DNA from: Pseudomonadota bacterium
GTDB taxonomy: Bacteria > Pseudomonadota > Gammaproteobacteria > GCA-001735895
NCBI GenBank assembly: GCA_022563685.1
Contig: JADFMY010000003.1
Span: 4,505-68,504 of the forward strand
Reading direction: 5' to 3'
DNA length: 64,000 nt
The position numbers and the translations under genes are program-made. Shown one piece after another: positions 1 through 17,789 of this stretch. Within the stretch, counting starts at the first letter, position 1, and every line of letters begins with the position of its first letter. Below the pieces are notes generated by a model. That model was not told the DNA's origin and ran no database searches. It saw only the letters and a list, made by a program, of their open reading frames with translations.

Positions 1-384
1 CAGGGATTCTATTTGCTTCTTTAGCTGGTAGAAACGCATTATAATCTCATCCAGCGCCTGTTCGATATAGTCAGACAAAATAGTGGCGACTACCTTTCGG
101 AAATTTACCCCCAGGTCTTCATACTTTGATCCATCGGAGATAAATATATCGGCAGAGACACGGATGAGTAGCTCGTGAACAACCAGTCTTTCGGGACGAA
201 AGAAAACAAGCTGCTGAATGGGAAGTCCGGTGAAATCACTTAATTCAGCAACGGTTTCAATACTGGAAAACATATTTTCCGGGCGAAAAAGAGTTGAGAG
301 GGGCAAATACTTTGGTGGCAATATAGACTGTATGCCTGGATTCCAGGGGCCCTCATCCATTTCCACTTGTTGCGTGGTAGTCAT
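1..384 (-). CDS. Hypothetical protein, N-terminal part (runs off the window edge); last visible gene of the formyl-CoA cluster
   Basis: Manual translation: open frame from ATG at 384 to base 1 (MTTTQQVEMDEGPWNPGIQSILPPKYLPLSTLFRPEN...RPERLVVHELLIRVSAD...), starting 6 bp after the stop of the PanE-like gene. Absent from the ORF track because it has no stop in the window. Confidence 0.75.
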   Translation of the reverse strand, partial: MTTTQQVEMDEGPWNPGIQSILPPKYLPLSTLFRPENMFSSIETVAELSDFTGLPIQQLVFFRPERLVVHELLIRVSADIFISDGSKYEDLGVNFRKVVATILSDYIEQALDEIIMRFYQLKKQIESL

Positions 385-390
385 TCCAGC

Positions 391-1395
391 TTAGATAGAG
401 CGTTCTTTAATATAAACAGACTCTTGCTGAATTTTTCTATTCAGCAGGCTTGCACAGGCATACAACGCCTTTAACGTTGGTGTTTCAACCCCGGTCATTT
501 CGCCCAGTTCGATGACGACACCGAGCATCCCATCGATTTCAAGCGGCTTACCCGCTTCGACATCCTGCAACATCGAAGTCTTATGCCTGCCGACAACCTC
601 AGCACCTTCAATACGCCTTGCAATTGTCACCCGAAAAGAGGCACCCAGGCGTTCGGCGATCTGTTGCGCTTCGCTCATCATAGTCGTTACGAGATCACGA
701 GTCAGCGGATACTGGCAAATATCAACCAGGGTAGAATGACTCAAAGCACTAATTGGATTAAAGCTAAGATTACCCCAGAGTTTCAGCCAAATTTCAGAGC
801 GGATGTCGGTTAGCACGCGAGATTTGAAACCGGCTTCCGTGAATAGCTCGGACACCATTTTGAGGCGATCTGACTCACTACCATCAAGTTCGCCAACGGG
901 GAAGCGATCACCCTCGACGTGCTCAATCACTCCCGGTTGTGAAATCATCGCCGCCGGATAGGCGACACAGCCAATAATTCGCTTTGGGTCGATACCGTTT
1001 GCGAGCACACCGCCAGGATCGACGGTTTCCACAATACGATTTTCATACTCGCCACCATTTCCCTGAAAATACCACCATGGAATACCGTTCTGCAAGGCTA
1101 CCATTACCGTGTCCGGACCAAACAGGGTTTTTAAATCATCGATAACAGGTGCAATCTGGTGAGCTTTCAGGGCTAGCAATATTACATCCTGGAGCCCACA
1201 CTCGGTCATGTCGTTAGTCGCAAACACATTGCGAACACAGCTTTCTTCACTGTTTTGGCGTAAGCTTAAGCCGTTCTCCTTTATCGCAGCGAGGTGTGGG
1301 CCACGAGCTATCAATGACACTTCGTGTCCTTGTTCGGCGATTCGAACCCCCATGTAGCCACCAATTGCACCAGCACCAACAACACATACTTTCAT
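391..1395 (-). CDS. Ketopantoate reductase (PanE/ApbA) family protein, candidate oxalyl-CoA reductase
   Basis: Rossmann motif VVGAGAIG, LKAHQ, LQNGIPWW, WLKLWGN, TSMLQD..GKPLE. Probable start MKVCVV at 1395. Lies in an operon with frc. Confidence 0.85.
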   Translation of the reverse strand: MKVCVVGAGAIGGYMGVRIAEQGHEVSLIARGPHLAAIKENGLSLRQNSEESCVRNVFATNDMTECGLQDVILLALKAHQIAPVIDDLKTLFGPDTVMVALQNGIPWWYFQGNGGEYENRIVETVDPGGVLANGIDPKRIIGCVAYPAAMISQPGVIEHVEGDRFPVGELDGSESDRLKMVSELFTEAGFKSRVLTDIRSEIWLKLWGNLSFNPISALSHSTLVDICQYPLTRDLVTTMMSEAQQIAERLGASFRVTIARRIEGAEVVGRHKTSMLQDVEAGKPLEIDGMLGVVIELGEMTGVETPTLKALYACASLLNRKIQQESVYIKERSI

Positions 1396-1526
1396 GATAA
1401 AAAGTTCAAATATTACCGGCATTAGGGCCGGTATAATTAATAATAATTCGATTGATTAGGGGAAGAGAATTCGCCCCGCTAAATAATCCCGAAAACTGAG
1501 GAAACAACCCTCCCGGCCAGGCTCTC

Positions 1527-2447
1527 CTAGGTCCCTAACTTCACCCCGGTTTCAAGTCCATTCGATGCCGCGTATTCTGCGGCACTAATCTTGCCTTCCC
1601 CGGCCGGGCGTACCCGCGAAATTAATATACCACCATCATCACCCGCAGATACAAGAATTCCCGCATCGCTTACTTCAGCTACGGTACCGGCTTCTCCGTT
1701 AACCGATTCAGTTTTTCGAGCATCGTATATTTGCACGCTTACACCATCGACAGTGCTCCAGGCTCCTGGCTGAGGATTTGCTGCTCGAATTGTGTTGTAA
1801 ATATCCTGGGCGGATTTACTCCAGTCAATCTCTACCTGTGCTTTACCAAACCAGGATTCATAGCTGCCCTCGTCGAGGTTTTGCGCTTGTTTGGGGGCAG
1901 TGCCCGCTTTAACCAGATCGAGTGATTCAATCATCGCATCTACACCCATAGGGAATAATTTATTGAAGTAGACATCCCCCAGAGTATCGTCTGGCCCTAT
2001 ATCACACTCTTTCTGCATTAAAATTGGGCCTTCGTCCAGCCCTGCATTAGGCCAGAATATCGTTAACCCGGTGCGTGTGGCGCCCATCGCAATCGGCCAG
2101 TTTATCGATGAGGGTCCGCGGTGCATTGGTAATAACGAAGGGTGATATTGAAAGGAGCCAAGCCTGGGGGCATCCAGTACTGACTCGGGTACCAATAACA
2201 AAACGTAAGCCATGATGCAGATATCTGCTTCAAAGGATTGCATCAACTCAAGTGATTCAGGCGTTTTCCATGATGCGGGTTGGTGAACCGGCAAGCCTTT
2301 TTCCAGAGCCAGTTGTTTCAATGGATCTAGTGGTTTACCCTCTTTATCGGGTGCCGTGCAAATTGCAACAATATTTTCACCACGTTCGAGCAGACGTTCG
2401 AGAACCGCTTTCCCAAATGTTTGTTGCCCATGAACTACTATACGCAT
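1527..2447 (-). CDS. Formyltransferase-family protein resembling the N-terminal formyltransferase/hydrolase domain of ALDH1L1 (10-formyl-THF dehydrogenase)
   Basis: YHPSLLPMHRGPSSINW, TIFWPNAGLDEGPILMQKEC, PDDT..VYFNKLFPMG, IDW....IYN.IRA.NP.PGAW. GAGG RBS before the ATG at 2447. Confidence 0.85.
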   Translation of the reverse strand: MRIVVHGQQTFGKAVLERLLERGENIVAICTAPDKEGKPLDPLKQLALEKGLPVHQPASWKTPESLELMQSFEADICIMAYVLLLVPESVLDAPRLGSFQYHPSLLPMHRGPSSINWPIAMGATRTGLTIFWPNAGLDEGPILMQKECDIGPDDTLGDVYFNKLFPMGVDAMIESLDLVKAGTAPKQAQNLDEGSYESWFGKAQVEIDWSKSAQDIYNTIRAANPQPGAWSTVDGVSVQIYDARKTESVNGEAGTVAEVSDAGILVSAGDDGGILISRVRPAGEGKISAAEYAASNGLETGVKLGT

Positions 2448-2472
2448 ATCCACACCTCATTATATTTGTTAG

Positions 2473-3723
2473 CTATACCGCGCCCGATTCCTTTATCTCG
2501 GCAATTTCGTCCACACTATACTCCAGCACTTCAGCCAGGATTTCTTCAGTGTGTTCGCCAAGCAACGGTGAACGAGTGACTTCGACCTCGGTGTCTGAAA
2601 GCTTGATCGGGCACCCAACGGTCAAATAACTTCCGCGTTGCGGATGCTCAACTTCGACGATAGTGCCAGTTTCACGCAATGAGGGTTCCTCGGCAATCTC
2701 TTTCATTGAAAGAATCGGGCCAACCGGAATATCAAGCGGGTTACATATATCCATTACTTCGAATTTGGTTTTAGTCATGGTCCAGGCTTCGATTGCGCCA
2801 AATATCTCGTTTAGCCGAGTCAACCGTGCAGGAGGTGTTGCATAATCCGGATGCTCCTTCCATTCCGGTTTTCCAATAACGCCACAGATTTTCTGCCAGA
2901 CCGCAACCTGGGTAATAAAATAGGTATAAGCATTGGGATCGCTCTCCCAACCCTTGCACTTGAGAATTCGACCGGGTTGCCCGCCACCAGAGTCATTCGC
3001 GGCACGTGGCGTTGCATCGCCAAACTCGATGCCTTCACCGAATTGCGAATATTCCTTGAGTGGGCCGTGTTGAAGTCGTTGCTGATCACGTAGTTTAACC
3101 CGACACAAGTTGAGCACCCCGTCCTGCATTGCCGCGAGTACGCGTTGTCCACGCCCTGTTTTTTCGCGTTGCAGCAAGGCGGCCGTGATACCCAATGCCA
3201 GATTCAAACCAGTTCCGGAATCACCAATCTGGGCTCCAGTTACTATCGGGACATCATCGCGAAAGCCAGTCGTCGATGCTGCCCCACCAACGCACTGTGC
3301 GACGTTTTCATACACCTTACAGTTTTCATAGGGTCCGGGCCCAAATCCTTTGATTGAAGCCATGATCATTCGAGGGTTCAACTCCTGTATACGTTCCCAG
3401 CCAAAACCCATTCGATCGAGCGCTCCAGGCGCAAAATTTTCTACCAGCACATCACACTTTTTCACCAGGCGTTCCAGCACTCGCTTACCGGTTTCGCTTT
3501 TGGAATTGAGTGTCAACGAGCGTTTGTTGTGGTTGAGCATGGTGAAGTAGAGGCTATCGGCGCCTTCCACATCGACTAATTGCTTTCTCGTAGCATCACC
3601 CACCCCCGGGCGTTCTACCTTGATAACATCTGCGCCCAACCAGGCTAATAATTGCGTGCAGGTAGGCCCAGACTGGACGTGTGTGAAGTCCAGTATTCTG
3701 ATGCCATCGAGTGCTTTTGACAT
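2473..3723 (-). CDS. frc: Formyl-CoA transferase (class III CoA transferase)
   Basis: [26 protein letters not shown], catalytic Asp in [14 protein letters not shown] glycine loop, SPLLGEHT. Confidence 0.93.
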
Positions 3724-3810
3724 TGTTTACCTCTGTAAAATTGACTATGCCTGGGTGAAAAGATCGCCAGTTGTGCCTGCTCCTGGACCATTTCTCACCA
3801 ATAAAATAAG

Positions 3811-5565
3811 CTACTTATACATCGTCTGCGCCTTGGTTCCTGGCGCGTATTCGTTCGGATCTACCCAGACATTTACGACGGCGCATTTGCCGGTTTTTGC
3901 AATGGCTTCACGGGCTCGTTGCAACGCTGGCTGTATCTCCCTGGCTTCATGGACCTCTTCGCCATAACCGCCGATCATTTCGGCGAATTTGGAGAAAGGC
4001 ACGTCGCCGAGCTTGTTACCGACATTGCCGCGCTCCTGACCATACTTGGCAAGCTGACCATAGCGAATTTGATTCATTGACGAGTTATTGCCAACGACCG
4101 CAAGATAAGGTGCGCCAAAGCGCTGTGCGGTTTCCATATCGAACGAGGTCATTCCAAATGCCCCATCGCCATAGAGACAGATGACCTCCTTGTTCGGGTG
4201 TGCGAGTTTCGCAGCCATCGAAAAACCGGTTCCTACTCCAAGCGAACCGAGTGCGCCCGGGTCCATCCACTGACCTGGATTACGCGGACGAACCGCCTGC
4301 GCCGAAATCGTCACTATGTCGCCACCATCGCCGATATAAATGGTGTCTTCACCCAGGAATTCATTTATCTCCCAGGCCAGCCGGTAAGGGTGGATAGGAT
4401 TTTGATCGCTGGTAAACATCGGCATCAATTTTTCAAGCTTCGTTGCTTCAATATCACCTAGTTCAGCCATCCATTTTTTACGCTCCTGCCGCGCGCCCTG
4501 ATCAGTACGACCCGATGCCGCCTGCTCGACCGCGGCTAAAATTGCACCGGGATCGCCGACCAGACCAAGACTGATACTACGGTTCTTGCCGACCGTCGTA
4601 TAACTTTGATCGATTTGCACCAGGGTGGCGTCTTCGGAAATTCGCTTGCCATATCCCATCCTGAAGTCGAAAGGCGTTCCAACGATCAAAATTACATCGG
4701 CATTTTTGAAAGCATCGCTGCGAGTACGATCAAAGTGGTGCGGATCGCTCTGCGGCAACATACCTCTGCTCGCTCCATTCATATAAGCTGGAATATCGAG
4801 CGCCCGAATAAAGCTGATGGCCGCTTCATGACCCCGCGAAATCCATACCTGCTGACCCAACAGTACCGCTGGTCGTTTAGCTTTTACCAATATATCGGCC
4901 AGTTTTTCTATGTCCGCCGGATCACCGATGGATTTCACCGATGCCCGGTATGAACCCGGCTCGGGAATAACTGCGGTTTCAATTGGAATTTCGCGATCCA
5001 GAATATCCCGTGGAATTTCGAGGTACGAAGGGCCATAGGCGCCATTGAAACACTCACGCGCAGCCATCGACACCATATCGGCAATACGTTCGGTAGAAAA
5101 TACACCCGAGGCAAACTTGGTAATTGGTTTCATCATGTCTACATGCGGAAGATCCTGCAATGAACCCATCTTATGCTGGGCCAGAGAACTTTGCCCGCCG
5201 ATGTGCAGTATTGGGCTTTCAGATCGAAATGCGGTCGCTATGCCGGTCACCGCATTGGTACAGCCCGGGCCAGCTGTGGTGACGACACAACCCAGTTTTC
5301 CTGTTTGGCGCGAGTAGCCATCAGCCGCGTGGGCAGCGGTCTGTTCGTGGCGCACATCGACTATGCGAATGCCTTCGTCAAGACAACCATCGTAGATGTC
5401 GATTATGTGGCCACCGCACAAGGTAAATATTGTATCTACACCTTCTGTCTTAAGCGCCTTAGCCACAAGATGGCCACCAGAGATGACCGAACCATCCTTA
5501 TTTTTTTGTTTTAAGGTGTCACTTGCGGTATCCGATACCGATTTTATGTCTGCACTTGTTGTCAT
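3811..5565 (-). CDS. ThDP-dependent enzyme of the ILVBL/acetolactate-synthase-like type; candidate oxalyl-CoA decarboxylase or 2-hydroxyacyl-CoA lyase
   Basis: FTLCGGHI, catalytic Glu in RHEQ, TAGPG, ThDP motif GDG...NN (YGDGAFG...VGNNSS). Directly upstream of frc. Confidence 0.85.
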   Translation of the reverse strand: MTTSADIKSVSDTASDTLKQKNKDGSVISGGHLVAKALKTEGVDTIFTLCGGHIIDIYDGCLDEGIRIVDVRHEQTAAHAADGYSRQTGKLGCVVTTAGPGCTNAVTGIATAFRSESPILHIGGQSSLAQHKMGSLQDLPHVDMMKPITKFASGVFSTERIADMVSMAARECFNGAYGPSYLEIPRDILDREIPIETAVIPEPGSYRASVKSIGDPADIEKLADILVKAKRPAVLLGQQVWISRGHEAAISFIRALDIPAYMNGASRGMLPQSDPHHFDRTRSDAFKNADVILIVGTPFDFRMGYGKRISEDATLVQIDQSYTTVGKNRSISLGLVGDPGAILAAVEQAASGRTDQGARQERKKWMAELGDIEATKLEKLMPMFTSDQNPIHPYRLAWEINEFLGEDTIYIGDGGDIVTISAQAVRPRNPGQWMDPGALGSLGVGTGFSMAAKLAHPNKEVICLYGDGAFGMTSFDMETAQRFGAPYLAVVGNNSSMNQIRYGQLAKYGQERGNVGNKLGDVPFSKFAEMIGGYGEEVHEAREIQPALQRAREAIAKTGKCAVVNVWVDPNEYAPGTKAQTMYK

Positions 5566-5664
5566 CTTTCACCTCAAAAATTTCTCAGCCTGGATAATCA
5601 TCATTAATCGTTCTACGGTGGCTGACTGCCGTAGGCCTGGTTTAGCAAACTTTTATTGCCGACA

Positions 5665-6351
5665 TCAATCTAAATAATCGACATATTTATCGACATGTTT
5701 GGCCAATTCGAGCGCATGATCTCTGACCAACTGCTCGGCGTGCGATGAATCCCTTTTCTCGATCGCCTCGATAATTCGAATATGGTCGATAACGGAACGA
5801 GAGATCCGATCTCGTTCCTTTATCGTGCTTGCGCGAATCGCACGCATATGAAAAAACAATTGATCGGACATCTGGGTTATCAAGGTTGATGCCCCCAGTT
5901 TAATAATCGTCTGATGAAACCTGACATTAGTCTCGGAGTATTCATCGATGTGCGCTCTTGCTTCTTCGCTATCGTCAAAAGTCGTAAAATCCCGGCGTAG
6001 GCCTGCGATCTCAGCATCGCTGGCTCGACTCGTTGCCAGCCTCGCAGCCATACTCTCAAGTGCTGCCCAGACATCGATCATATCGAGTATTTCATCCTTC
6101 GTTTTTCGTACCACGAAAGCACCTCTGCGAGCGATGTTCCGCACCAGACCTTCCTGCTCAAGTCTCGATATCGCTTCACGAACCGGGGTTCTGCTTACGC
6201 CGAGGTGCTCGCCCAGAGCCCTTTCATCCAGACGAGGTAGTTCCTGACCCGAGTAAATATCCATTTGACCAATGATCTCCTTCAGCGCCTCGTAGACCCG
6301 TGTTTTGAGTACTTTGGCAGGTTCCAGTGGAACAATATTCAGGTTCTTCAC
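5665..6351 (-). CDS. GntR family (FCD domain) transcriptional regulator
   Basis: wHTH LGVSRTPVREAISRLEQEGLV; FCD metal residues N..FH and DH..I...H. Confidence 0.92.
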   Translation of the reverse strand: MKNLNIVPLEPAKVLKTRVYEALKEIIGQMDIYSGQELPRLDERALGEHLGVSRTPVREAISRLEQEGLVRNIARRGAFVVRKTKDEILDMIDVWAALESMAARLATSRASDAEIAGLRRDFTTFDDSEEARAHIDEYSETNVRFHQTIIKLGASTLITQMSDQLFFHMRAIRASTIKERDRISRSVIDHIRIIEAIEKRDSSHAEQLVRDHALELAKHVDKYVDYLD

Positions 6352-6414
6352 CTTGAGTCTCCGATAAATTCATTTAAGAGCCGCGACCCAATTGCCCAAC
6401 GCCCACAATGGTCA

Positions 6415-7935
6415 CTAGGCCTGTTGCTTACGAAGCTTGTCATAACCCAGCTTAAATAATGGTAAGAATAAAAAAATCAGAGCGGTAATCATGATCGGTC
6501 CCGCGTAGGTACGGGTAAAGAAAATCGCGAATGACCCATCACTGATTAGCAATGATTGCCGCATAGCCGGCTCAGCCAGCGGTCCCAGCACGATCGCCAG
6601 TACAGCAGGCGCCAGGGGGTAATCCAGTTTCCGCATCAGGTACCCGACAATACCAAAAACAACCATCAGCCGGACATCATGCAAATTCTGGGTTGGAGCA
6701 TATCCACCGATCAGGCATAAGATGAAAATGATTGGCGCCAAAATCGTAAACGGGGTCTTGAGTATTTTTATAAATACAGGAATAAAGGCCACATTAATCA
6801 TCACCGCAAACAGATTAGCCGCATACAGGGAAGCGATTAAACCCCACACAAAATCGCTGTGATCTACAAACAACATCGGGCCCGGTTCCAATCCCCAAAT
6901 TACCATTCCACCGAGCAATATCGCTGTGGTCGGGGAACCCGGAATACCCAGGGTCAACATTGGCAGCATCGAGCCAGTACTTGCCGCATTATTAGCCGCC
7001 TCTGGCGCGCACACACCGTCTAACGCACCCTTGCCAAATTTTTCCGGCTCTTTCGACATTTGCTTGGCCATGCCATAGGCCATTAATGAGGCAGGAGTAG
7101 CGCCAGCCGCCGGCAGTATGCCGACAAAATAGCCCAGAAATGACCCCATTAGCATTGATTTCCATTTCGTCATCAGTTCCCGCAAATTGCTCATGGTTCG
7201 TTTTACCGTGACAGTGGCCTCAGACAGCATACTTTTCCCGCCACCGAGAGTGTGTTCCTCAACTGTCCAGAGCATTTCACCGATGCCATAAATTCCAATC
7301 GCTAATACTAAAAAGTTTACTCCGTGTAAAAAACCTGTGATGTCCCATAGAACCAGGCGAGGTTCACCGGAGATAATATCGAAGCCGACTGCACTCAATA
7401 CCAGCCCGATAGAAATTGAGAAAAGAGTCTTAAAAATATCATCGCTACCCAGCCCGACGAAAGTAGCAAAAGCCAGCATCATCAACGCGAATTCCTCGGG
7501 CGCACCAAACACCAGAGCGACATGCGCAAGTGGTGGCGCGAAAAAAGTAAACAGCACAACAGAAATGGAGCCGCCGACAAACGAAGCCATTGCGGCGGCC
7601 GTCAGGGCTTTATCGGCCTGACCTTGCTTGGCCAAAGGCCGGCCATCAAAGGTCGTAGCAACTGCAGTCGATGCCCCGGGTATCCCAAGCATTATCGAAG
7701 AGATAGCGCCGCCATACATAGCGCCGTAATAGATAGCACAAAGAAATATGATGGCCCCGGTTGGTGGAACCAAAAATGTCAGCGGCAAAAGAATAGCCAC
7801 GCCGTTGACCGAGCCCAAACCGGGCATTGCGCCTATAAACAGGCCTAACGCGCAACCTGCGATGATTAACAGCAAATTCTGCGGTTCAAATACGACCGTG
7901 AACCCGCTAGCGAGGAGTCCTAGAGTTTCAAGCAT
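6415..7935 (-). CDS. tctA: Tripartite tricarboxylate transporter large subunit TctA
   Basis: GAMPGLG, YYGAMYGGAISSIMLGIPG, APEAANNA, TLGIPGSPTTA; many TM segments. Confidence 0.93.
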   Translation of the reverse strand: MLETLGLLASGFTVVFEPQNLLLIIAGCALGLFIGAMPGLGSVNGVAILLPLTFLVPPTGAIIFLCAIYYGAMYGGAISSIMLGIPGASTAVATTFDGRPLAKQGQADKALTAAAMASFVGGSISVVLFTFFAPPLAHVALVFGAPEEFALMMLAFATFVGLGSDDIFKTLFSISIGLVLSAVGFDIISGEPRLVLWDITGFLHGVNFLVLAIGIYGIGEMLWTVEEHTLGGGKSMLSEATVTVKRTMSNLRELMTKWKSMLMGSFLGYFVGILPAAGATPASLMAYGMAKQMSKEPEKFGKGALDGVCAPEAANNAASTGSMLPMLTLGIPGSPTTAILLGGMVIWGLEPGPMLFVDHSDFVWGLIASLYAANLFAVMINVAFIPVFIKILKTPFTILAPIIFILCLIGGYAPTQNLHDVRLMVVFGIVGYLMRKLDYPLAPAVLAIVLGPLAEPAMRQSLLISDGSFAIFFTRTYAGPIMITALIFLFLPLFKLGYDKLRKQQA

Positions 7936-7975
7936 ATTCCTGTCTCTTTTTCAGTACCGAGAGGTATTTAAACGT

Positions 7976-8479
7976 CTAAAAAAATATCTTGTAGAGCGGT
8001 ATAAACAGGGGTTCTGTAATCCCTTTCGGAAGAATAATTTTCAGTGTTACTTCGAAAAAATAAAATATAAACATCGGTATTGAAATTGCCAGGGTGGTGG
8101 TAAGCTTCCAGGAGTGTTTACCCATGAATCGAAGGTAAAAAAGCAGGAATAAAGGCAGTGCGCCATAGATTCCGATAAACGAAAATAAACCAACCGTTAC
8201 GATCAATGAGATTGCGACAGCGCCCACATCGACCAGCACATGGGGCTCGATGTAAAGCTTTTCAGAGCTAGCGATCGGGCCGTGTTTTCGAAACCAGTTA
8301 AACAGGATTCCCAGGCAGGAAATCAACATGATGCTTGCCAACCAGAACGGCCATGCGCCACCGCCCGGACCTTCACCGTCTATCCAGCCGATCGGCAGTT
8401 CAGTACTTTTATACATAAGGTAGATGGAGAAGGTCCCCATCATTACGGCCATCAACAATTCAGCAGTCCGAACCGTCAT
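7976..8479 (-). CDS. tctB: Tripartite tricarboxylate transporter small subunit TctB
   Basis: GPGGGAWPFW, about 4 TM segments, C-terminal LPKG; lies between tctC and tctA. Confidence 0.85.
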   Translation of the reverse strand: MTVRTAELLMAVMMGTFSIYLMYKSTELPIGWIDGEGPGGGAWPFWLASIMLISCLGILFNWFRKHGPIASSEKLYIEPHVLVDVGAVAISLIVTVGLFSFIGIYGALPLFLLFYLRFMGKHSWKLTTTLAISIPMFIFYFFEVTLKIILPKGITEPLFIPLYKIFF

Positions 8480-8529
8480 GATTGAGAGCCCTCCATCTAC
8501 ACTGATGTATTAATATTTATGAAATAGTT

Positions 8530-9516
8530 TTACTTAATGGCGCCCATGTCCCTGAGCATTACCTCGTGTATATCGCGCTCAATTTTCCAGTAACTCATCA
8601 AGGCATTGCCAGTTAACAGATCTCCCTGCAAGCTCTTTTTGGTGCGATATTCCTGCCACTTGGCAGAATTGAATACGCGCGTAAAGAGATCAGTGTAATA
8701 AGCCTGCGCTTCTTTGCTCATTCCAGGAGCACCTACGACAGTGCGCTGCATGAAGTATACGAAGTCCTTACCCAATTCTTTAAAAGTGGGTGCATTGGGG
8801 AAGAGTGGTAAACGTTCGGGAGTAAAGGCTGCCAGGGCTTTGGTTATACCCGCTTCATAGAATCCCAACTGTTCCGAGGGGTTATTGACTGTTGAATCAG
8901 CATTCTTACCCGCGAGCTCTTTAGCAACCTTGCCGCCACCCTTGTAAGGTACGTATTTCATCTCCAGCCCGTAGGCAGTGTTAAGAAAATCGGTTAACAG
9001 GTTATCTTCCGAGTTCTTACCGGTACCAGCCATGATCCAATTGCTACCTTTGGCTTTAGCCGCCTTGACAAAGTCAGCCACATTGTTGATGTCCTTACGG
9101 TCGGTATGCACCCACAGCAGGAAGGTGTCTTCGGCCATACGAGCAATTGGTGTAAAGGTAGCGATATCTATACCTAGCGCTGGTTGACGCAATGGTGTTG
9201 TGTAAAAGCTGTTCAGAGTAAACATGATGGTATGGTTATCGCCTGTTTTACCTTTCAGGTGAATCAGGGCTTCGGCGCCAGTTCCACCAGGCTTATTGAT
9301 CGGCGTGAATGGAACCGGTGCCATATTTTCTGATGCAATAATATTTTGCATCAATCTAACGGCCTTATCTGCACCGCCGCCTTTACCAGCCATAACAACA
9401 AATTCAACCGGTTTTATAGGTTCCCAGGCTTGCCCGATAGCTGGCAGACCTGCCAGGATCGCGCTTGCGCCGATAACACAAATCAATTTTTTGAACGTGC
9501 ATTGTGGTTTAAACAT
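8530..9516 (-). CDS. tctC: Tripartite tricarboxylate transporter substrate-binding protein TctC (Bug family)
   Basis: Signal peptide, KPVEFVV..GKGGGAD, NKPGGTGA, YVPYKGGG, PTFKELG. Probable start MFKPQ at 9516. Confidence 0.9.
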   Translation of the reverse strand: MFKPQCTFKKLICVIGASAILAGLPAIGQAWEPIKPVEFVVMAGKGGGADKAVRLMQNIIASENMAPVPFTPINKPGGTGAEALIHLKGKTGDNHTIMFTLNSFYTTPLRQPALGIDIATFTPIARMAEDTFLLWVHTDRKDINNVADFVKAAKAKGSNWIMAGTGKNSEDNLLTDFLNTAYGLEMKYVPYKGGGKVAKELAGKNADSTVNNPSEQLGFYEAGITKALAAFTPERLPLFPNAPTFKELGKDFVYFMQRTVVGAPGMSKEAQAYYTDLFTRVFNSAKWQEYRTKKSLQGDLLTGNALMSYWKIERDIHEVMLRDMGAIK

Positions 9517-9631
9517 TATACGTATCCTCCAATTGTGACAGGTCAGCTTCGACCTAAAAAAAATGCCTCCAACCAATTGCCGGAAACATTACTTCGTCAG
9601 CTCCCCCCTACGAGGTGCCTTTGTACCCTAA

Positions 9632-10107
9632 GGTAAGGTCTGATTTATTCAGGCCTTCCACAGTACATGGGCAAGTTTTTGCTCCTCGGCAATTGCTCCT
9701 GCATCGCCTAAAAGCGCCTACTGTTGGTGCTCTATTAAGTTACATCCCTGTAACGATCGGCAATTGCTCCTGCATTGCTCTATTAAGTTACATCCCTGTA
9801 ACGATCGGCAATTGCTCCTGCATCGCCTAAAAGCGCCTACTGTTGGTGCTCTAATAAGTCACATGACCGCCATGGATGGTGGAAATGCAATTGGGTTGTA
9901 GGAACAACCCTTGCCCATGTAACGATGCAAAACCTGCATTTCCCACAGGGCCTGCCCCGCGAGCTTCGCGAGTGCTTTGGGTATCCTTGTGGGTCATGTG
10001 CTGCCAAAATCGATGCCGCTAAGGCATTGATTTTGTGAGACAAATGAAAATCACATGTTTCGTTTGTCGTCCTCTGAGAATTCATGGATGAATTATTCAG
10101 AGGTTCC
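9632..10107. mobile_element. Putative non-autonomous IS5-like MITE (about 476 bp)
   Basis: Flanked by CTAA direct repeats (9628-9631 and 10108-10111). The right end read inward is GGAACCTCTGAATAATTCA and the left end is GGTAAGGTCTGATTTATTCA. The 98 bp at 10013-10110 recur inverted at 57393-57490. No transposase ORF. Confidence 0.65.
9686..9865. repeat. Tandem array of a 48-bp palindrome-containing unit; copies 1 and 3 carry a 23-bp insert
   Basis: TCGGCAATTGCTCCTGCAT at 9686, 9757 and 9805. TGCTCTATTAAGTTACATCCCTGTAACGA at 9728 and 9776, degenerate at 9847. Insert CGCCTAAAAGCGCCTACTGTTGG at 9705 and 9824. Confidence 0.9.
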
Positions 10108-10312
10108 CTAATACCACTCTCTGGATTGAGACAAACGGTATACCACTATCCATATACTTCAGGTCATTATTCTTAACTGGATAGTCTCTTGTACTTTCTG
10201 AATGGGCGAGGCTCGTGACTTCCCTCAAAACCCAGCCAAATAACCCGTAAAATTTTGGCAACCGTCTAATTTCTAATCGTTATAAGCGTTTGTCTAATAC
10301 CGAAATAAAATC

Positions 10313-10329
10313 TGGTATACAGTATGCCA
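10313..10329. promoter_or_regulatory. Palindromic operator candidate, probably for the cluster GntR
   Basis: TGGTATAC-A-GTATGCCA (7/8 inverted symmetry) upstream of the tctCBA-gntR-lyase-frc unit; related GGTATACC at 10137-10144. Confidence 0.45.
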
Positions 10330-10395
10330 AATCTGGATTCTACCTGCCATACACCAAATGTAAAGCATTTTTCCAGCCATTAAAGATGCCTGCCA

Positions 10396-12132
10396 TCAGT
10401 CCCGAATTCTCTCATCATCCGGGTAAACACTAATGCCTGGTACCGTTCCATTCAGGAGTTCATTTTGTATCTCAGTCCAGTATTGGGTACTGAGTAAATT
10501 TGCGTGGCGCCTGGCAAAGAGATCACGAAGTTTTCGTTGGGGGATGCACAACCCGGAGACAAGTTCTTCGGGCAGGAATATGACTCCCTCTTCAAAATAC
10601 CAATCTGGAATATCTTCCTCACCCTCCACGCGATCAAGGTTGGTGCGAATTTTTACCTCGGTTAAATCTTCAAGTGCATCGTAGTCAAACAGATAGACCT
10701 TGGAGAAAGATCCGATGCCGTAATTTCTGGCATCGAGATCCTTGTTGAAAATATTTGCAGACGCGTTGTTTTTAATGCAATAACCAAGATTAGTCATCGC
10801 CGTTTCAGCCTGTTTTTCACTCGCATTTTCAAGGTAAACCGGCAGTGGAGTTATTTTAATCTGGACAATCAGATATTTAAAAATAACATCATCGCCGTGT
10901 AAAGATACTGTCTCAGAGGCGTGTGAGAGCAAGTCCTCAAGCAATTTCGAAGAGAACCACCTTCGATCAAGGCGTACCTTGTAGTAAATGATGCTATCCA
11001 ACATACTTCCTGTACGGTTAATTTCATGGATACGGGTATATTTGCGGATTACCGACTCTAGACCTTTATACTCACCCCACTTATATTTTTCCGTTGGTTT
11101 GTCACGAATAACTTTCAGATTATAGGCAGAGTTTTTCGACGAAAATCCCATGGCAACAGTGCCTTTTGAACCGACGGCAGTTTCCAGGCCTCCATCGGAG
11201 TCAAGCAATTCTGACTCGAGTTCGCTCATTACGGCGACCTTTCCAAGATGGTTATAACCTATCGTGGTGTAGTGCAGTCCTAAGGGACGCCTCGGCATAA
11301 TGCTTTTCAATAACGCACTTACTTCGTGATAGTAAGTAGTAGTCACATGAAAATTCGCCAGCGTCGAGCTAAATATGTTGTGTGCATAGGTCTCACTGGT
11401 TAACACTGCGTCAACAAAAATCCCCGATTTGTCATTGAGTAATGCGATGATCAGTGGTGCGAAACTGTCGTTATCAAAAATCAGTCGTCCTACTAGATAG
11501 GCACCTCGATTTCGATAAAAACCGGCGTTAATTATTTCTACCCGAATCAATCGATTTGCCCGACGTGAGGTCCTTGCAATATTCTCGGCAACACGTTGTG
11601 CAATTCTATGCGCATCATCCTGAATATTTGCGAAACTCGGAGTGAAGTCAGGGATCTTCAATATTTCTAAAACTGTTTCTTCCGATAAATGCCCGTCTAC
11701 CTCGAAACAAACAATCAGCTTCGACAAAAATTCATCCGACGCAGAAATCAATTTAAAAAAAGAGTAATCAGCTGTACGCCATTCACCCTGATAGATTTTA
11801 CGCCGCAGTGAATGTAAATAGGCCCGCCCGATGTCTTCAGCATATTCGCCTTTAATTAATTGCCGGTAATGTAATTCGACTTCCTCCCACTGGTCGATAT
11901 CGATATGTATCTCTGGATAGGCCTGTTTTAAGCGTTCGCTGACATCAATAATGCTGGCGCTATAGAGTGACAACCTGCGTGCGCTGACACGCACCGAGCT
12001 CGCGAAGTCGCGTTTCTCGAAAGCTAATTTTGCCAGATTAAGAATCATTAAAAATTCCCGATAGAAGAGCCTGTATTCCTCATACAGCCAGGTGGACACC
12101 GCCTGAATACGCCGCGATTCTGAATTGCTCAT
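10396..12132 (-). CDS. Divergent isocitrate dehydrogenase kinase/phosphatase (AceK)-like protein
   Basis: 578 aa with GFYRNRGAYLVGR, FSSTLANFHV, YTTIGYNHLGK, LKVIRD (ATP-site Lys), NIFNKDLDARNYG, LFDYD, IFLPEE. Confidence 0.8.
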   Translation of the reverse strand: MSNSESRRIQAVSTWLYEEYRLFYREFLMILNLAKLAFEKRDFASSVRVSARRLSLYSASIIDVSERLKQAYPEIHIDIDQWEEVELHYRQLIKGEYAEDIGRAYLHSLRRKIYQGEWRTADYSFFKLISASDEFLSKLIVCFEVDGHLSEETVLEILKIPDFTPSFANIQDDAHRIAQRVAENIARTSRRANRLIRVEIINAGFYRNRGAYLVGRLIFDNDSFAPLIIALLNDKSGIFVDAVLTSETYAHNIFSSTLANFHVTTTYYHEVSALLKSIMPRRPLGLHYTTIGYNHLGKVAVMSELESELLDSDGGLETAVGSKGTVAMGFSSKNSAYNLKVIRDKPTEKYKWGEYKGLESVIRKYTRIHEINRTGSMLDSIIYYKVRLDRRWFSSKLLEDLLSHASETVSLHGDDVIFKYLIVQIKITPLPVYLENASEKQAETAMTNLGYCIKNNASANIFNKDLDARNYGIGSFSKVYLFDYDALEDLTEVKIRTNLDRVEGEEDIPDWYFEEGVIFLPEELVSGLCIPQRKLRDLFARRHANLLSTQYWTEIQNELLNGTVPGISVYPDDERIRD

Positions 12133-12286
12133 AATCCTCCCGTGCCAGGTGCTTCAGTTTTCCAAAAACATCGACAACAAATAGCGCAGTTTATATACAA
12201 TACTGTCTTACGAGTAGTACTTACCAGGTGAGCACAAGCCTATAATTTCTACCTTAATCTAGATGACAACTTGAGCAGGAATAACC

Positions 12287-13066
12287 ATGTCGAAAAAGTG
12301 GGTACGCTATGAACACGCCAGGCAACAGGGATTCGGTATACTCGAAAACGATACAATACTTTGCCATGAAGGCGATATGTACCAAAATCCGAGGGGCACT
12401 GGAGAAAAACTCATGGTAAAAGAGGTGCAGCTACTCGCACCCTGCCAACCCACTAAGATAGTTGCCATGTGGAACAATTTTCATCAGCTGGCGGAAGCTC
12501 AAAATCTTGAACTGCCAGAATTCCCGTTTTACTTCATCAAACCAGAGAGTTGTGTTTCTGGACCTGGCGCCGAGATCGTACATCCGAACGGTTATGAGGG
12601 TCGTCTCATATACGAAGGTGAGTTAGGCGTAGTAATCGGCAAAACCTGCAAAGCTGTCAGTCGGGAAAATATCGCTGGTTATATTTTTGGTTATACCTGC
12701 ATCAACGATGTAACAGCTATTCACCTGCTATTTAAATATGATGCATTTCCTCAGTGGACCCGTTCAAAGAGTTTCGATAGCTTTGGCATCATAGGCCCTT
12801 GTATCGCCGATCTCGATAGCCCGGACTCACTCAGGGTCAGAACCCTCGTTAACGGTGAAGAGCGGCAAAACTATCCCGTGGCTGACATGATATTTTCTCC
12901 GCTGGATTTGGTCAGCCTGATTTCGGGCGACATGACCCTTCATCCTGGCGATGTCATTGCTTGCGGTACGTCTCTGGGTGTTAAGACCATGAAACCAAAT
13001 ACAGTAGTTGACGTTGAAATCGAAGGCATCGGCACCTTAACCAACATTTATCGGCCAGAGGTTTAA
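12287..13066 (+). CDS. Fumarylacetoacetate hydrolase family protein
   Basis: YFIKP, YEGELGVVIG, GYTCINDVTA, WTRSKSFDSF, TLHPGDVIACGT. Confidence 0.92.
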   Translation: MSKKWVRYEHARQQGFGILENDTILCHEGDMYQNPRGTGEKLMVKEVQLLAPCQPTKIVAMWNNFHQLAEAQNLELPEFPFYFIKPESCVSGPGAEIVHPNGYEGRLIYEGELGVVIGKTCKAVSRENIAGYIFGYTCINDVTAIHLLFKYDAFPQWTRSKSFDSFGIIGPCIADLDSPDSLRVRTLVNGEERQNYPVADMIFSPLDLVSLISGDMTLHPGDVIACGTSLGVKTMKPNTVVDVEIEGIGTLTNIYRPEV

Positions 13067-13068
13067 CC

Positions 13069-14658
13069 ATGAGGAACCACCAATTTCCGGGACGCTCGGT
13101 GGTGATGTCAACCGATGCCATGGCGGCGACCAGCCAGCCCATGGCTACCCAGGCAGCTTTACAAATCTTGCGCGATGGCGGCAACGCGCTCGATGCTGCA
13201 ATCGCTGCAAGTGCAACACTTGCCGTAGTCGAAAGCTACTCGACGGGCATCGGTGGTGACTGCTTTATTCTTTACCACGAAGCGTCCAGTGGCAAACTGC
13301 ATGCGCTCAACGGCAGTGGGCGGTCGGCTGCAGCTGCAACAATCGAGGCGATGCAGTCGCGAGGACATGAGACTATGCCTGAACAGGGTATACTCGCGGT
13401 TACCGTACCAGGTGCCGTCGATGCCTGGCATTGTGCCCATAACAGGCTGGGTAGTCTGTCGTTTAAGGATCTCCTGCAGCCCGCCATTCACTATGCTGAA
13501 CAGGGTTATGCTGTCAGCCCGATCATTGCGCATAACTGGAAGTCTTGCGAAACACTTTTATCACAAACGCCTGAAGCAGCAGCAGCCTACCTGATCGACG
13601 GGAAAGCACCGCAAGCCGGAATGATTCACCGCCAGCCAGACCTCGCCAAAAGCCTGCGACTGATTGCCGATCAGGGACGTGATGCTTTTTATCAAGGTGC
13701 GATCGCCGAGGAAATTATCCGTTTTAGCGATTCACACAACGGATTACTCAGTCTCGATGATTTAGCCAGCCACCAGTCGGAATGGGTAGACCCGATCAGC
13801 TCGGATTATCGTGGATACCGGGTTTGCGAAATTCCGCCTAACAGCCAGGGAATCACCACTTTGATGGCTTTAAATATACTGGCACAGACCGAGGTATCGC
13901 AATTCGAGCATCTCAGTGCCGGCCATATTCACCTTTTAAGCCAGGCCTTTTCCCTGGCGATGGCCGAGCGCGATCGTTTTATTTCTGATCCCGAATTTAA
14001 TCAGCTGCCGGTAGATGAGCTACTCTCTACTGAATTTGCAAAAACGCAATTTGCGCGCATCAAAATGGATCAGGTGCTGGCGCAACCAGTTTCGTCAATA
14101 TTACCGAATCACAAAAACACCGTCTATCTGAGCGTAGTCGATAAGAGTCGAAATGCCTGTTCACTGATTAACAGCGTATTTTATTCATGGGGCAGCGGGT
14201 TGGTAGCCGGTTCGACCGGAATCAACCTGCAAAACCGGGGTAGTGGATTCACCCTGGAGCCGGGGCATTTTAACCAACTGGAACCTAGAAAACGCCCGAT
14301 GCACACCATCATTCCTGCGATGGTTTACCAGGGTGAGAAACCGGTTCTCTGCTTTGGAGTCATGGCCGGACAGTACCAGGCGATGGGCCAAACCTACGTG
14401 CTCTCCAACTGGATTGACTATGGCATGGATATCCAGCAATCACTAGACGCGGCTCGTTTCCTTCTCTACGACGGCGAATTATCTGTCGAGGCGGCTATTT
14501 CCGCTGAGACACGAAATACTCTTTCCGGTCTTGGCCATCAGGTCGCTGTTGCGGATTCTCCGCTCGGCGGTGGCCAGGCGATCTATATCGACTGGGAAAA
14601 TGGTGTATTGCACGGAGGCTCGGACCCAAGAAAAGACGGCATGGCCGCGGGTTTTTAA
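13069..14658 (+). CDS. Gamma-glutamyltransferase family Ntn-hydrolase (cytoplasmic YwrD/HpxW-like type)
   Basis: GGNALDAAIA, GIGGDCF, VTVPG, PPNSQG, nucleophile Thr in NTVYLSVVD, LQNRG, KRPMHTIIP, GSDPRKDG. No signal peptide. Confidence 0.9.
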   Translation: MRNHQFPGRSVVMSTDAMAATSQPMATQAALQILRDGGNALDAAIAASATLAVVESYSTGIGGDCFILYHEASSGKLHALNGSGRSAAAATIEAMQSRGHETMPEQGILAVTVPGAVDAWHCAHNRLGSLSFKDLLQPAIHYAEQGYAVSPIIAHNWKSCETLLSQTPEAAAAYLIDGKAPQAGMIHRQPDLAKSLRLIADQGRDAFYQGAIAEEIIRFSDSHNGLLSLDDLASHQSEWVDPISSDYRGYRVCEIPPNSQGITTLMALNILAQTEVSQFEHLSAGHIHLLSQAFSLAMAERDRFISDPEFNQLPVDELLSTEFAKTQFARIKMDQVLAQPVSSILPNHKNTVYLSVVDKSRNACSLINSVFYSWGSGLVAGSTGINLQNRGSGFTLEPGHFNQLEPRKRPMHTIIPAMVYQGEKPVLCFGVMAGQYQAMGQTYVLSNWIDYGMDIQQSLDAARFLLYDGELSVEAAISAETRNTLSGLGHQVAVADSPLGGGQAIYIDWENGVLHGGSDPRKDGMAAGF

Positions 14659-14766
14659 TGTTCCTTTGCAAAACTTTTTAATCCTAAGGTTAAGCAAGAC
14701 TCGATGTGTCAAACCTTCCAGCAGTATATGGATCGAGTAACGATGAACTAGAGCAATGTATATTAA

Positions 14767-14793
14767 GGAACCTCTGAATAATTCAGACCTTCC
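14767..14793. mobile_element. 27-bp minimal IS5-like element (two fused terminal inverted repeats) flanked by a TTAA duplication
   Basis: TTAA-GGAACCTCTGAAT-A-ATTCAGACCTTCC-TTAA. The first 18 nt are identical to the MITE end at 10107 and 57396. Confidence 0.7.
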
Positions 14794-15978: not shown

Positions 15979-16033
15979 CAAATAGAGGTGGTTCCTTAAT
16001 ATTAGCCGGCAGGTTGGTTTGCTGGATTCTACT

Positions 16034-17204: not shown

Positions 17205-17789
17205 ATGAAACTCGACAACTTCACCTATCAGGACTGGCTGAATAATGCCCTTTTGCCAATCGTCATAATCATAGTGGCAATCGTTATCGTTGTGCTTATC
17301 AACCGGCATAAACTTCGACAACACTGGCAGGAGCGGAGTACTCGCCGCTGCCTGAACCGGATAGGTATCGATCAAAGATCTAATCTGAGATGCCCCGATG
17401 GATTAGGTGGTAGCTTTAACATCGATCGCCTGGTTATGCTTCACGATTCAATCCTGTTGGTCTCTCTTAAACCTTTTTCCGGTAATATTTACTGTGCCGA
17501 CAATATCCCCGAGTGGACTCAGTTAGTTGGCCCAAAAAGCTTTAAATTCGAAAATCCACTATTCGATCTGGAGCATCAGGTTAACGCGATCCGTATTCAG
17601 GCACCCGATGTACCCATTCGAGGATTCCTGTTTTTTGACCACAGGGCCCGGTTCCCCAAAGGGCATCCTGAGCAGGTATTGTATCCTGCCAATATTCCCG
17701 AGAATTTTTTTGGTGTTAATTGCCCGGAGCCCGACGACACAGTACTAAAGACCTGGGACGTTTTGGTCGATCTTCCAAAACGACTTTAA
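17205..17789 (+). CDS. Membrane-anchored NERD (nuclease-related) domain protein
   Basis: N-terminal TM helix, then IDRLV....ILLVSLK.FSG.IY, WTQ, FENPL, FPKG. Confidence 0.65.
   Translation: MKLDNFTYQDWLNNALLPIVIIIVAIVIVVLINRHKLRQHWQERSTRRCLNRIGIDQRSNLRCPDGLGGSFNIDRLVMLHDSILLVSLKPFSGNIYCADNIPEWTQLVGPKSFKFENPLFDLEHQVNAIRIQAPDVPIRGFLFFDHRARFPKGHPEQVLYPANIPENFFGVNCPEPDDTVLKTWDVLVDLPKRL

Follow-up and report, generated by a model that had tools for sequence, protein, structure and literature searches.

A probable oxalate-utilisation operon in a marine-sediment gammaproteobacterium, with a lyase-like enzyme in the oxalyl-CoA decarboxylase position and a formyltransferase paralogue

The stretch of DNA analysed here (the window; 64 kb, G000:C23:4505-68504) belongs to a draft genome of 2.99 Mb that is 92% complete, and the source organism is a marine-sediment gammaproteobacterium. 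This study focuses on the first ~18 kb, which carry nine co-oriented genes on the minus strand in the order tctC-tctB-tctA-gntR-ThDP enzyme-frc-fmtL-panE-like-601-aa P-loop gene. The first three encode a tripartite tricarboxylate transporter (TTT), the fifth a thiamine diphosphate (ThDP) enzyme resembling 2-hydroxyacyl-CoA lyases (HACL), and the seventh, here named fmtL, a formyltransferase paralogue. We consider it probable that the row is an oxalate-utilisation operon in which the HACL-like enzyme acts as decarboxylase in place of oxalyl-CoA decarboxylase (Oxc) and fmtL exchanges formyl groups between CoA and tetrahydrofolate (THF). Read in this way the operon is a variant of the known oxalate system, and the idea of an initial annotation, that of a complete and distinct formyl-CoA/oxalate system with its own kinase and feeder hydrolases, is partly supported. 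Gene identities were taken from a listing of open reading frames (ORFs) and from Pfam and NCBIfam profile scans compared with curated cut-offs, and the features are as follows.

8530-9576, minus strand: tctC, periplasmic solute-binding protein of the TTT transporter (PF03401, 78.5 bits)
7976-8479, minus strand: tctB, small membrane subunit of the TTT transporter (PF07331, 50.6 bits)
6415-7935, minus strand: tctA, large membrane subunit of the TTT transporter (PF01970, 486.9 bits)
5665-6351, minus strand: transcription regulator of the GntR/FCD family (PF00392 and PF07729)
3811-5565, minus strand: HACL-like ThDP enzyme, proposed non-canonical oxalyl-CoA decarboxylase (three TPP_enzyme domains)
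2473-3723, minus strand: frc, formyl-CoA:oxalate CoA-transferase (TIGR03253, NF003809)
1527-2453, minus strand: fmtL, formyltransferase paralogue, proposed formyl-CoA:THF formyltransferase (PF00551 and PF02911)
391-1422, minus strand: PanE/ApbA reductase, proposed oxalyl-CoA reductase (CoA-acylating glyoxylate dehydrogenase; NF005089)
1-384, minus strand: first 128 codons of the 601-aa protein (Walker A motif), the remainder lying at G000:C23:3083-4504
9577-10395, minus strand: operon leader/promoter region (promoter-like site, boxes, repeats)
10396-12132, minus strand: AceK-like paralogue (NF002804, under the cut-off)
12287-13066, plus strand: FAH-family protein (PF01557 and PF10370)
13069-14658, plus strand: GGT-like Ntn hydrolase, aligning from residue 4 (TIGR00066, 422 against a cut-off of 358)

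The intergenic gaps from tctC to the last ORF are 50, 40, 63, 99, 87, 19, 104 and 6 bp, and a flavin-reductase gene lies 42 bp past the 601-aa gene, just outside the window. The ORF listing and the profile scans agree with the layout given in the initial annotation: nine co-oriented genes with short gaps, an AceK-like gene and a divergent FAH-GGT pair. The last gene of the row, there called hypothetical, is present, although the window edge cuts it; the version on the contig encodes 601 aa and a Walker A motif. No Rfam family reached its gathering score in positions 1-15000 of the window.

The order tctCBA-gntR-ThDP-frc-fmtL is repeated in 13 further loci of the same GTDB genus (loci compared here carry L numbers), and the core gntR-ThDP-frc-fmtL is found in at least five Pseudomonadota families, four of them besides the source organism's own, and on metagenome contigs; many of the compared genomes are incomplete. 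Because of this recurrence the gene order goes beyond chance. Downstream of fmtL several arrangements are seen. In variant A, to which the window belongs, fmtL is followed by panE, the 601-aa gene and the flavin-reductase gene. Variant B, with an fmtL of ~59% identity, continues with a formate-THF ligase gene (FTHFS; 918 bits against 652), a tandem universal stress protein (Usp) gene and an NAD-type formate dehydrogenase, composed of an FdsB-like subunit and Fdh-alpha (741 against 666), with malate synthase G nearby. A third form, from another family (L020 and L021), reads gntR-ThDP(76%)-frc-fmtL-FTHFS-Usp-panE. Other families contribute L019, which has the row through fmtL and then the 601-aa gene, and L033, with gntR-ThDP-frc-fmtL, while L032, from another class, has gntR-ThDP(76%)-frc-panE(52%), its fmtL-FTHFS pair lying on a separate contig (L025). 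In loci of families f1, f65, f100, f133, f314, f278 and f282, the gene immediately upstream of the ThDP or oxc gene is the one for the GntR regulator. The tandem-type Usp gene recurs beside the module (L002 1433-2299; L011 12145-13005; L016 3581-4474); in variant B it comes after FTHFS, and in variant A it faces the flavin-reductase gene in convergent orientation. Two small complete genomes of the same class (L030 and L031) have the order Crp-like regulator-oxc-frc-frc-fmtL, after which L030 has a gene for a bestrophin-like channel; their two frc paralogues are 62-63% and 72-73% identical to the frc of the window.

By its profile scores frc is an equivalog-level formyl-CoA:oxalate CoA-transferase (Frc), with 696.8 on TIGR03253 (cut-off 504.2) over residues 3-416 of 416 and 715 on NF003809 (cut-off 442). 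The ThDP enzyme is below every curated cut-off, including those of PRK05858 (451 against 587) and of the actinobacterial HACL model NF058623 (360.3 against 600), and its scores on the Oxc models are 217.8 against 739.4 (TIGR03254) and 238.6 against 557 (NF006721). On these same two models the protein occupying the slot in L015 scores 974.5 and 996.8. The best solved relative of the window enzyme is the actinobacterial AcHACL at 273 bits, with 2-hydroxyacyl-CoA lyases and synthases (HACL/HACS) at ~257. A control with NF004516 gave matches in 13 named genomes, none above the cut-off, and is uninformative on the ThDP clade.

The slot itself is more telling. Three congeneric loci (L015, L023 and L024) have canonical oxc (975 against 739) where the window has the ThDP gene, in the order gntR-[oxc]-frc-fmtL-panE-601aa, and their frc and fmtL products are 85-87% and 73-77% identical to those of the window. 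Among 61 genomes of the genus, 43 have the HACL-like enzyme, five have oxc, none has both and 13 have neither; no canonical oxc was found in the source genome. The ThDP enzyme adjoins frc in every locus that holds it. In trees of frc and of fmtL (midpoint rooting) the three operons with oxc group together with support, and their clade is nested within the HACL-like operons of variant A. The exchange of the HACL-like gene and oxc is a non-orthologous displacement within one operon, and it is mainly because of this displacement that we read the ThDP enzyme as a putative oxalyl-CoA decarboxylase and the substrate as oxalate. With frc scoring above the oxalate equivalog cut-off, oxc occurring in the same slot and none of the 61 genomes holding both ThDP types, the substrate of the operon with most support is oxalate; the 2-hydroxy acid that the initial annotation offered as an alternative is disfavoured, because canonical oxc fills the same slot.

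Active-site positions were compared using the numbering of Oxalobacter formigenes Oxc, checked on an alignment with 2c31, and of AcHACL, checked on an alignment with 7pt3, where the chain index is the native number plus 11. L127/Q128 of AcHACL, of which Q128 binds the acyl carbonyl, are kept in the window enzyme as L136/Q137, and the CoA contacts R273/S274 as R282/S283. I492/E493 correspond to Q499/I500, the catalytic Glu being replaced by Ile. Y120/E121 of Oxc align with L136/Q137, S553 with G576 and R555 with K578, and the region of Y483 gives I500 with a two-residue insertion. The enzyme therefore has Q128 and the R273/S274 contacts of AcHACL, lacks E493 and falls short of the HACL cut-off, and has none of the Oxc active-site residues Y120/E121, Y483 and S553. 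These states are stable: after tblastn rows shorter than 500 residues or with 60% identity or less were dropped, 20 orthologues were left, in all of which L136, Q137, Q499, I500 and G576 are invariant; R282 is also invariant, and S283 is kept in 13 of the 20. The available portions of PMC8760513 describe E493 as the acid/base residue required for 2-hydroxyacyl-CoA cleavage, OXC decarboxylation as proceeding without such a residue, and Y483/S553 of OXC as holding the oxalyl carboxylate. Because the catalytic Glu of HACL and the Tyr and Ser of Oxc are all replaced, the ThDP enzyme is without the hallmark residues of either characterised kind, and its residue set would fit a third solution, while being no proof of the substrate.

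The likely true start of fmtL is the ATG at 2447, as its relatives have 305-306 aa. Its score on the Fmt equivalog model TIGR00460 is 171.1, below the cut-off of 201.5, and the genome has its own fmt on contig C151, 33-35% identical to fmtL. The closest solved relative is the N-terminal domain of ALDH1L1 (10-formyl-THF dehydrogenase) at 199.5 bits, with Escherichia coli Fmt at 174; the fold agrees, and H104/S106/D140 of fmtL align with the catalytic H106/S108/D142 of the zebrafish ALDH1L1 N-terminal domain. Several proteins of this kind act on thiols. As far as the accessible sections of the papers go, the ALDH1L1 N-terminal domain moves formyl from 10-formyl-THF to the 4'-phosphopantetheine arm or thiol (PMC8748788), the HypX N-terminal domain has been proposed to pass formyl from 10-formyl-THF to CoA (PMC6802093), and LctF converts 10-formyl-THF and CoA to formyl-CoA in vitro (PMC11730586).

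In a class sample of 400 genomes, orthologues of fmtL (E ≤ 1e-60) and of the HACL-like enzyme (E ≤ 1e-110) occur in the same seven genomes. Of the 401 genomes in a phylum sample, eight have fmtL homologues (44-53% identity where they fall outside the lineage) and 18 have canonical oxc; six of the eight hold canonical oxc, and the other two (the source genome and G834) have the HACL-like enzyme beside frc. Among 28 genome loci (the source contig and 27 that were fetched) fmtL is the gene immediately after frc in 25; frc is preceded by the HACL-like enzyme in 17 of these and by oxc in eight, the latter including L026, L027, L028, L030 and L031. The exceptions are L029, where oxc-frc is ~6 kb off, L022, which is cut, and L025, with no frc in reach. 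Eighty metagenome loci were fetched with a fused query, and 11 of them hold fmtL adjoining FTHFS; frc is directly upstream of fmtL in nine of these (accompanied by oxc in four and by the HACL-like enzyme in three), and in the remaining two the locus is cut off where the contig ends. In the protein database, 41 of 47 longer fmtL relatives (E ≤ 1e-40) are fmtL-FTHFS fusions, and the three that were scanned all have complete domains.

Two further kinds of fused sequence were seen. P0285, a single assembled transcript from a eukaryotic transcriptome, has a 920-aa ORF in which an fmtL-like domain is joined to a ThDP enzyme of the Oxc/HACL type, which shares 43% identity with oxc and has retained its Tyr and Ser; should this ORF be real, it would represent a eukaryotic route from formyl-CoA to folate. 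P0281 and P0284 were considered as frc-fmtL fusions and rejected, since they contain only the last third of the CoA-transferase profile and are probably gene-call read-throughs.

Homology, the adjacency to frc, the FTHFS neighbours and the fusions suggest a tie of fmtL both to 10-formyl-THF and to formyl-CoA; the formyltransferase probably links formyl-CoA to the folate pool, and we propose that it is a reversible formyl-CoA:THF formyltransferase. A folate link was part of the initial annotation, and the ALDH1L1 homology, the FTHFS adjacency in many relatives and the fmtL-FTHFS fusions speak for it; the direction given there, from formyl-CoA to folate, is less secure, because thioester bookkeeping favours the reverse at least equally. 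A rough thermodynamic estimate makes formyl-CoA + THF -> 10-formyl-THF + CoA slightly downhill, and therefore either direction is plausible.

The PanE-like protein scores 447 on NF005089 (cut-off 223), has the PanE/ApbA fold and is encoded near frc and the decarboxylase gene. In four of five further oxc genomes its best homologues (49-54% identity) lie 3.8-16 kb from canonical oxc. PanE2 of Methylobacterium extorquens and ApbA2 of Cupriavidus necator, encoded near frc-oxc, are described in the available part of PMC7486775 as CoA-acylating glyoxylate dehydrogenases, that is, oxalyl-CoA reductases, and by analogy the PanE-like gene fits this known function. Of the oxalate/formyl-CoA module of the initial annotation, the canonical frc, the non-canonical ThDP enzyme replacing oxc and the TTT transporter replacing OxlT hold up; the panE-like gene is not the extra part it was taken for. 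TctA, TctB and TctC are encoded together, and all three are above the cut-offs of PF01970, PF07331 and PF03401. The TTT genes stay with the module in differing gene orders, following FTHFS in L046, L069 and L089, and this linkage despite changes of order supports the predicted transport of the pathway substrate; TctC is proposed to be the oxalate receptor. Elsewhere in the source genome are genes for FTHFS (incomplete, being at the end of a contig), FdsB/FdhA and malate synthase G. The sucCD-like genes upstream of tctC in variant B were considered as a possible oxalyl-CoA synthetase and set aside, both scoring above the succinate-CoA ligase equivalog cut-offs.

From these parts the following pathway may be drawn. 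The operon would be controlled by the GntR/FCD regulator acting as a repressor, and oxalate would enter through TctCBA. Frc would convert oxalate and formyl-CoA to oxalyl-CoA and formate, and the HACL-like ThDP enzyme, judged from the displacement, would decarboxylate oxalyl-CoA to formyl-CoA and CO2. Part of the oxalyl-CoA may be reduced to glyoxylate by the PanE-like reductase, as context and precedent suggest. Malate synthase G could then take up the glyoxylate and NAD-linked formate dehydrogenase the formate; the genome encodes these two enzymes elsewhere. The predicted role of fmtL is to move formyl between the CoA thiol and N10 of THF: FTHFS would make 10-formyl-THF from formate, ATP and THF, and fmtL would turn this into formyl-CoA, priming and refilling the cycle. 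The opposite direction, from formyl-CoA to 10-formyl-THF, is equally feasible chemically. Priming would be the most useful direction because each oxalyl-CoA reduced to glyoxylate costs one thioester, whereas the decarboxylase branch conserves them. A priming role for the Frc/Oxc cycle has been published for YfdE (PMC3720670).

Two linked claims go beyond this pathway: that fmtL and FTHFS, joined into a single protein in some organisms, together constitute a THF-dependent, ADP-forming route from formate to formyl-CoA, and that the HACL-like enzyme is an oxalyl-CoA decarboxylase that arose independently. We put these forward tentatively, giving somewhat less than an even chance to both being right.

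The leader upstream of tctC contains a promoter-like site at 10364-10337 that matches the consensus at 10 of 12 positions; neither such sites nor terminators are commoner than in shuffled sequence (21 sites against 19.6 in the promoter scan; 18 against 15.5 in the terminator scan). There are two GntR-type palindrome-like boxes, CTGTATACCA at 10322-10313, just downstream of the promoter-like site, and TGGTATACCG at 10145-10136. Of 15 loci, 14 have upstream of tctC a 10-base box with no more than two mismatches to TGGTATACCA, and 12 have one with no more than a single mismatch, where chance would give about 0.4 and 0.03 per locus, respectively; the loci are related. This palindrome-like box, which can be written T(T/G)GTATACCA or TGTATACCA and is conserved upstream of tctC among L004-L024, oxc-bearing loci included, is a candidate for the operator to which the GntR/FCD regulator would bind. 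The leader is ~460 bp longer here than in close relatives, placing the boxes at -746 and -569 rather than -279 and -109, and at 9686-9864 it contains a repeat-rich insert, in which a 60-nt direct repeat has two copies at a spacing of 119 nt and a 48-nt stretch is duplicated exactly in tandem; either an insertion or a fault of assembly could account for this.

The 601-aa protein has the Walker A motif GASASGKST and gave no sequence match in Pfam, NCBIfam or the PDB. Its AF2 model (pLDDT 74) shows a central P-loop kinase domain like that of zeta toxins, an N-terminal helical region and a C-terminal alpha/beta domain, and the best Foldseek matches, PezT/zeta and nucleotide kinases, are weak (E ~2e-3 or worse). 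The family is common in metagenomes, with 5385 matches at E ≤ 1e-3 among 8000 scored candidates, and its gene is kept after panE or fmtL in operons of variant A. We count the genes for the zeta-like kinase and for the flavin reductase as accessory. One homologue lies away from oxalate genes, between recG and moeA-moaE (L007 10001-11755). In the ESM Atlas the protein falls in 'zeta toxin family' clusters of its own, and a value of 0.87 to a cluster of plant calmodulin-dependent NAD-kinase-like proteins is a lead only.

On the other side of the leader, the AceK-like protein scores 428-429 on NF002804, below the AceK cut-off of 488; canonical aceK (649 bits) is split over the ends of contigs C139 and C93, and the AceK-like paralogue is ~27-29% identical to it. 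It abuts tctC only in the window and in L004, L013, L014 and L016. The FAH gene, whose best solved relatives are isomerase/decarboxylases of the HpcE/HpaG type, abuts the operon in the window, L013, L023 and L024, and at other loci sucCD (a bona fide succinate-CoA ligase) or other genes take the AceK/FAH position. The best solved relative of the GGT-like protein is 2nlz, deposited as 'cephalosporin acylase' (394 bits), and L009, L016 and L032 (another class; 6 kb) have homologues no more than 10 kb away from the module. A function of this protein as oxamate amidohydrolase was considered, but the solved structures nearest to it give that reading no support. The AceK-like, FAH and GGT-like genes are variable neighbours whose links to the system are unproven; since they vary between loci and nothing shows such roles, the kinase and feeder hydrolases of the initial annotation do not carry over. 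Farther on (14794-17086), an ORF encoding an MFS (major facilitator superfamily) transporter, best matched by an ArsK-like model under its cut-off, overlaps by 50 bp an ORF with metallo-beta-lactamase-fold and rhodanese domains, which resembles persulfide dioxygenase/sulfurtransferase fusions, and at 17205-17789 on the plus strand is a small NERD (nuclease-related domain) protein.

Several observations weigh against an oxalate operon built around the HACL-like enzyme and fmtL. Under all curated cut-offs and without the carboxylate-binding Tyr/Ser of Oxc, the ThDP enzyme could have a different substrate; benzaldehyde lyase, which uses no CoA, scores 238 bits against it and canonical OXC chains only 157-186, and the AcHACL CoA contacts Q255 and R417 are not kept, being G264 and A422 in the window. 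The similarity of fmtL to HypX is weak (41 bits), and fmtL could be a hydrolase or act on another acceptor. In the phylum sample 12 of the 18 oxc genomes are without fmtL, which is therefore not essential for oxalate catabolism. The window operon has no FTHFS beside fmtL, that of the genome being on another contig, and none of the 11 fetched fmtL-FTHFS loci is fused, all having two genes, so that fusions are known from the protein database alone. Related genomes are also non-independent samples, and the counts overstate the support.

These points give room to other explanations. The module could serve alpha-oxidation of a 2-hydroxy or 2-oxo acid, the PanE-like enzyme reducing the 2-oxo acid, the Frc-like one making the 2-hydroxyacyl-CoA and the HACL-like one cleaving it to formyl-CoA and an aldehyde or ketone. 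Ketopantoate reductases do produce 2-hydroxy acids, among solved structures the ThDP enzyme has its best relatives in 2-hydroxyacyl-CoA lyases and synthases, and the conservation of L127/Q128 of AcHACL with loss of the Oxc-specific Y120/E121/S553 points the same way. We nevertheless consider this quite unlikely, as the catalytic Glu of AcHACL is Ile in all 20 orthologues, frc is over the oxalate cut-off, and canonical oxc, never found together with the HACL-like type in the 61 genomes, stands in the same slot with gntR, panE, fmtL and an frc that is 85-87% identical; nor was a conserved gene for the aldehyde or ketone product seen in the loci examined. That the wider system of the initial annotation is right, the AceK-like protein regulating it and the FAH and GGT-like proteins freeing oxalate from precursors such as oxamate, is very unlikely in our view. 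The adjacency of the AceK-like gene in five loci and of FAH in four, two of them with an FAH-FTHFS unit divergent from tctC, and the GGT-like homologues within 10 kb are in keeping with it, and the oxamate amidohydrolase HpxW belongs to the GGT family. All of the AceK and FAH adjacencies, however, are inside one genus and variable, with sucCD or others elsewhere; the GGT-like protein is far closer to the 'cephalosporin acylase' chain than to 5hft (142 bits); the nearest solved relatives of FAH are HpcE/HpaG-type enzymes; and the AceK-like, FAH and GGT-like genes are all outside the co-oriented operon.

Alternatively, fmtL could hydrolyse 10-formyl-THF or formyl-CoA, or it could be an N-formyltransferase acting on some amine or on a tRNA. 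The isolated N-terminal domain of ALDH1L1 does hydrolyse 10-formyl-THF in vitro, according to the part of PMC8748788 available, and fmtL keeps the C-terminal domain of the Fmt type. A hydrolase beside or fused to FTHFS would, however, create an ATP-wasting cycle, and the genome has its own fmt; in the phylum sample fmtL is present only in genomes with oxc or the HACL-like enzyme plus frc (eight of eight), and one transcript fuses it to an Oxc/HACL-type enzyme. We judge these activities unlikely. A module fed mainly by glyoxylate would accord with ApbA2 of C. necator, a reversible CoA-acylating glyoxylate dehydrogenase feeding a route of oxalyl-CoA decarboxylation in the sections of PMC7486775 available, as well as with the adjacency and fusion of fmtL and FTHFS and with the eukaryotic fmtL-Oxc-like fusion, which suggests flux from formyl-CoA to folate. 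Against it, frc, which is not needed on the glyoxylate route, is present in every locus reaching that far, many fmtL loci are without panE, and no glycolate oxidase or other glyoxylate-producing gene was seen in the operon, and we regard it as highly improbable.

If oxalate utilisation with formyl exchange is the correct reading, there are several consequences. Surveys of oxalotrophy use oxc and frc as markers, and an oxc marker would miss this lineage, which is common in marine-sediment metagenomes. Formyl exchange between 10-formyl-THF and CoA would explain the priming and refilling of an Frc cycle drained by oxalyl-CoA reductase; the route from fmtL and FTHFS would then prime the cycle, balance CoA thioesters and let oxalate be assimilated via the reductase. 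It would also be a component of bacterial oxalotrophy that is widespread and has been overlooked, as about one third of the oxc genomes sampled have it. As a natural path from formate to formyl-CoA at the cost of one ATP-to-ADP step, it would bear on the step that limits synthetic formate-assimilation pathways based on HACL/Oxc-type carboligases. The ThDP enzyme naturally has Gly where engineers changed Ser of Oxc to Gly to obtain a glycolyl-CoA synthase, and it is itself a candidate catalyst.

Catabolism by oxc/frc, reduction of the PanE2 type and transfer of formyl from 10-formyl-THF to CoA (LctF, HypX) are already known. The literature searched, which included the accessible part of a review (PMC13409138), with subscription papers and supplements outside the search, mentioned no formyltransferase as a regular member of oxalate operons and no fusion of one with FTHFS, no HACL-like enzyme replacing oxc and no TTT transporter in an oxalate role.

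Compared with the canonical oxc-frc(-oxlT) systems of Oxalobacter formigenes and E. coli (yfdXWUVE), the window operon has in common frc and the formyl-CoA/oxalyl-CoA cycle, and relatives of the operon carry true oxc; it differs in having a HACL-like enzyme for oxc, a TTT transporter for the OxlT antiporter, and an additional formyltransferase. On the oxalate/formate antiporter family, for which the cut-off is 375, the MFS gene nearby reaches no more than 34 bits. With the PanE2/ApbA2 route of M. extorquens and C. necator it shares a PanE/ApbA reductase together with frc and a decarboxylase, and malate synthase G in the genome, a likeness judged by family and gene context. The ThDP enzyme shares with AcHACL the fold, L127/Q128 and R273/S274, but has Ile for E493 and Gln for I492, has lost Q255/R417, and stands in a context of oxalate rather than 2-hydroxyisobutyrate.

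The closest parallels to fmtL are the N-terminal domains of ALDH1L1 and HypX, and LctF, which is likened by description only. The fold and the His/Ser/Asp triad match those of the ALDH1L1 domain, and the published acceptors of these proteins are 4'-phosphopantetheine or CoA thiols. Unlike them, with their settings in a dehydrogenase, a hydrogenase maturase and a polyketide synthase/nonribosomal peptide synthetase cluster, fmtL is a stand-alone catabolic protein of oxalate operons, found beside or fused to FTHFS. Its proposed role, that of supplying the first or a lost thioester, is the same as that of the acetyl-CoA:oxalate CoA-transferases YfdE and UctC (PMC3720670), but it is unrelated to them in family and chemistry, and its donor would be 10-formyl-THF made from formate and ATP rather than acetyl-CoA.

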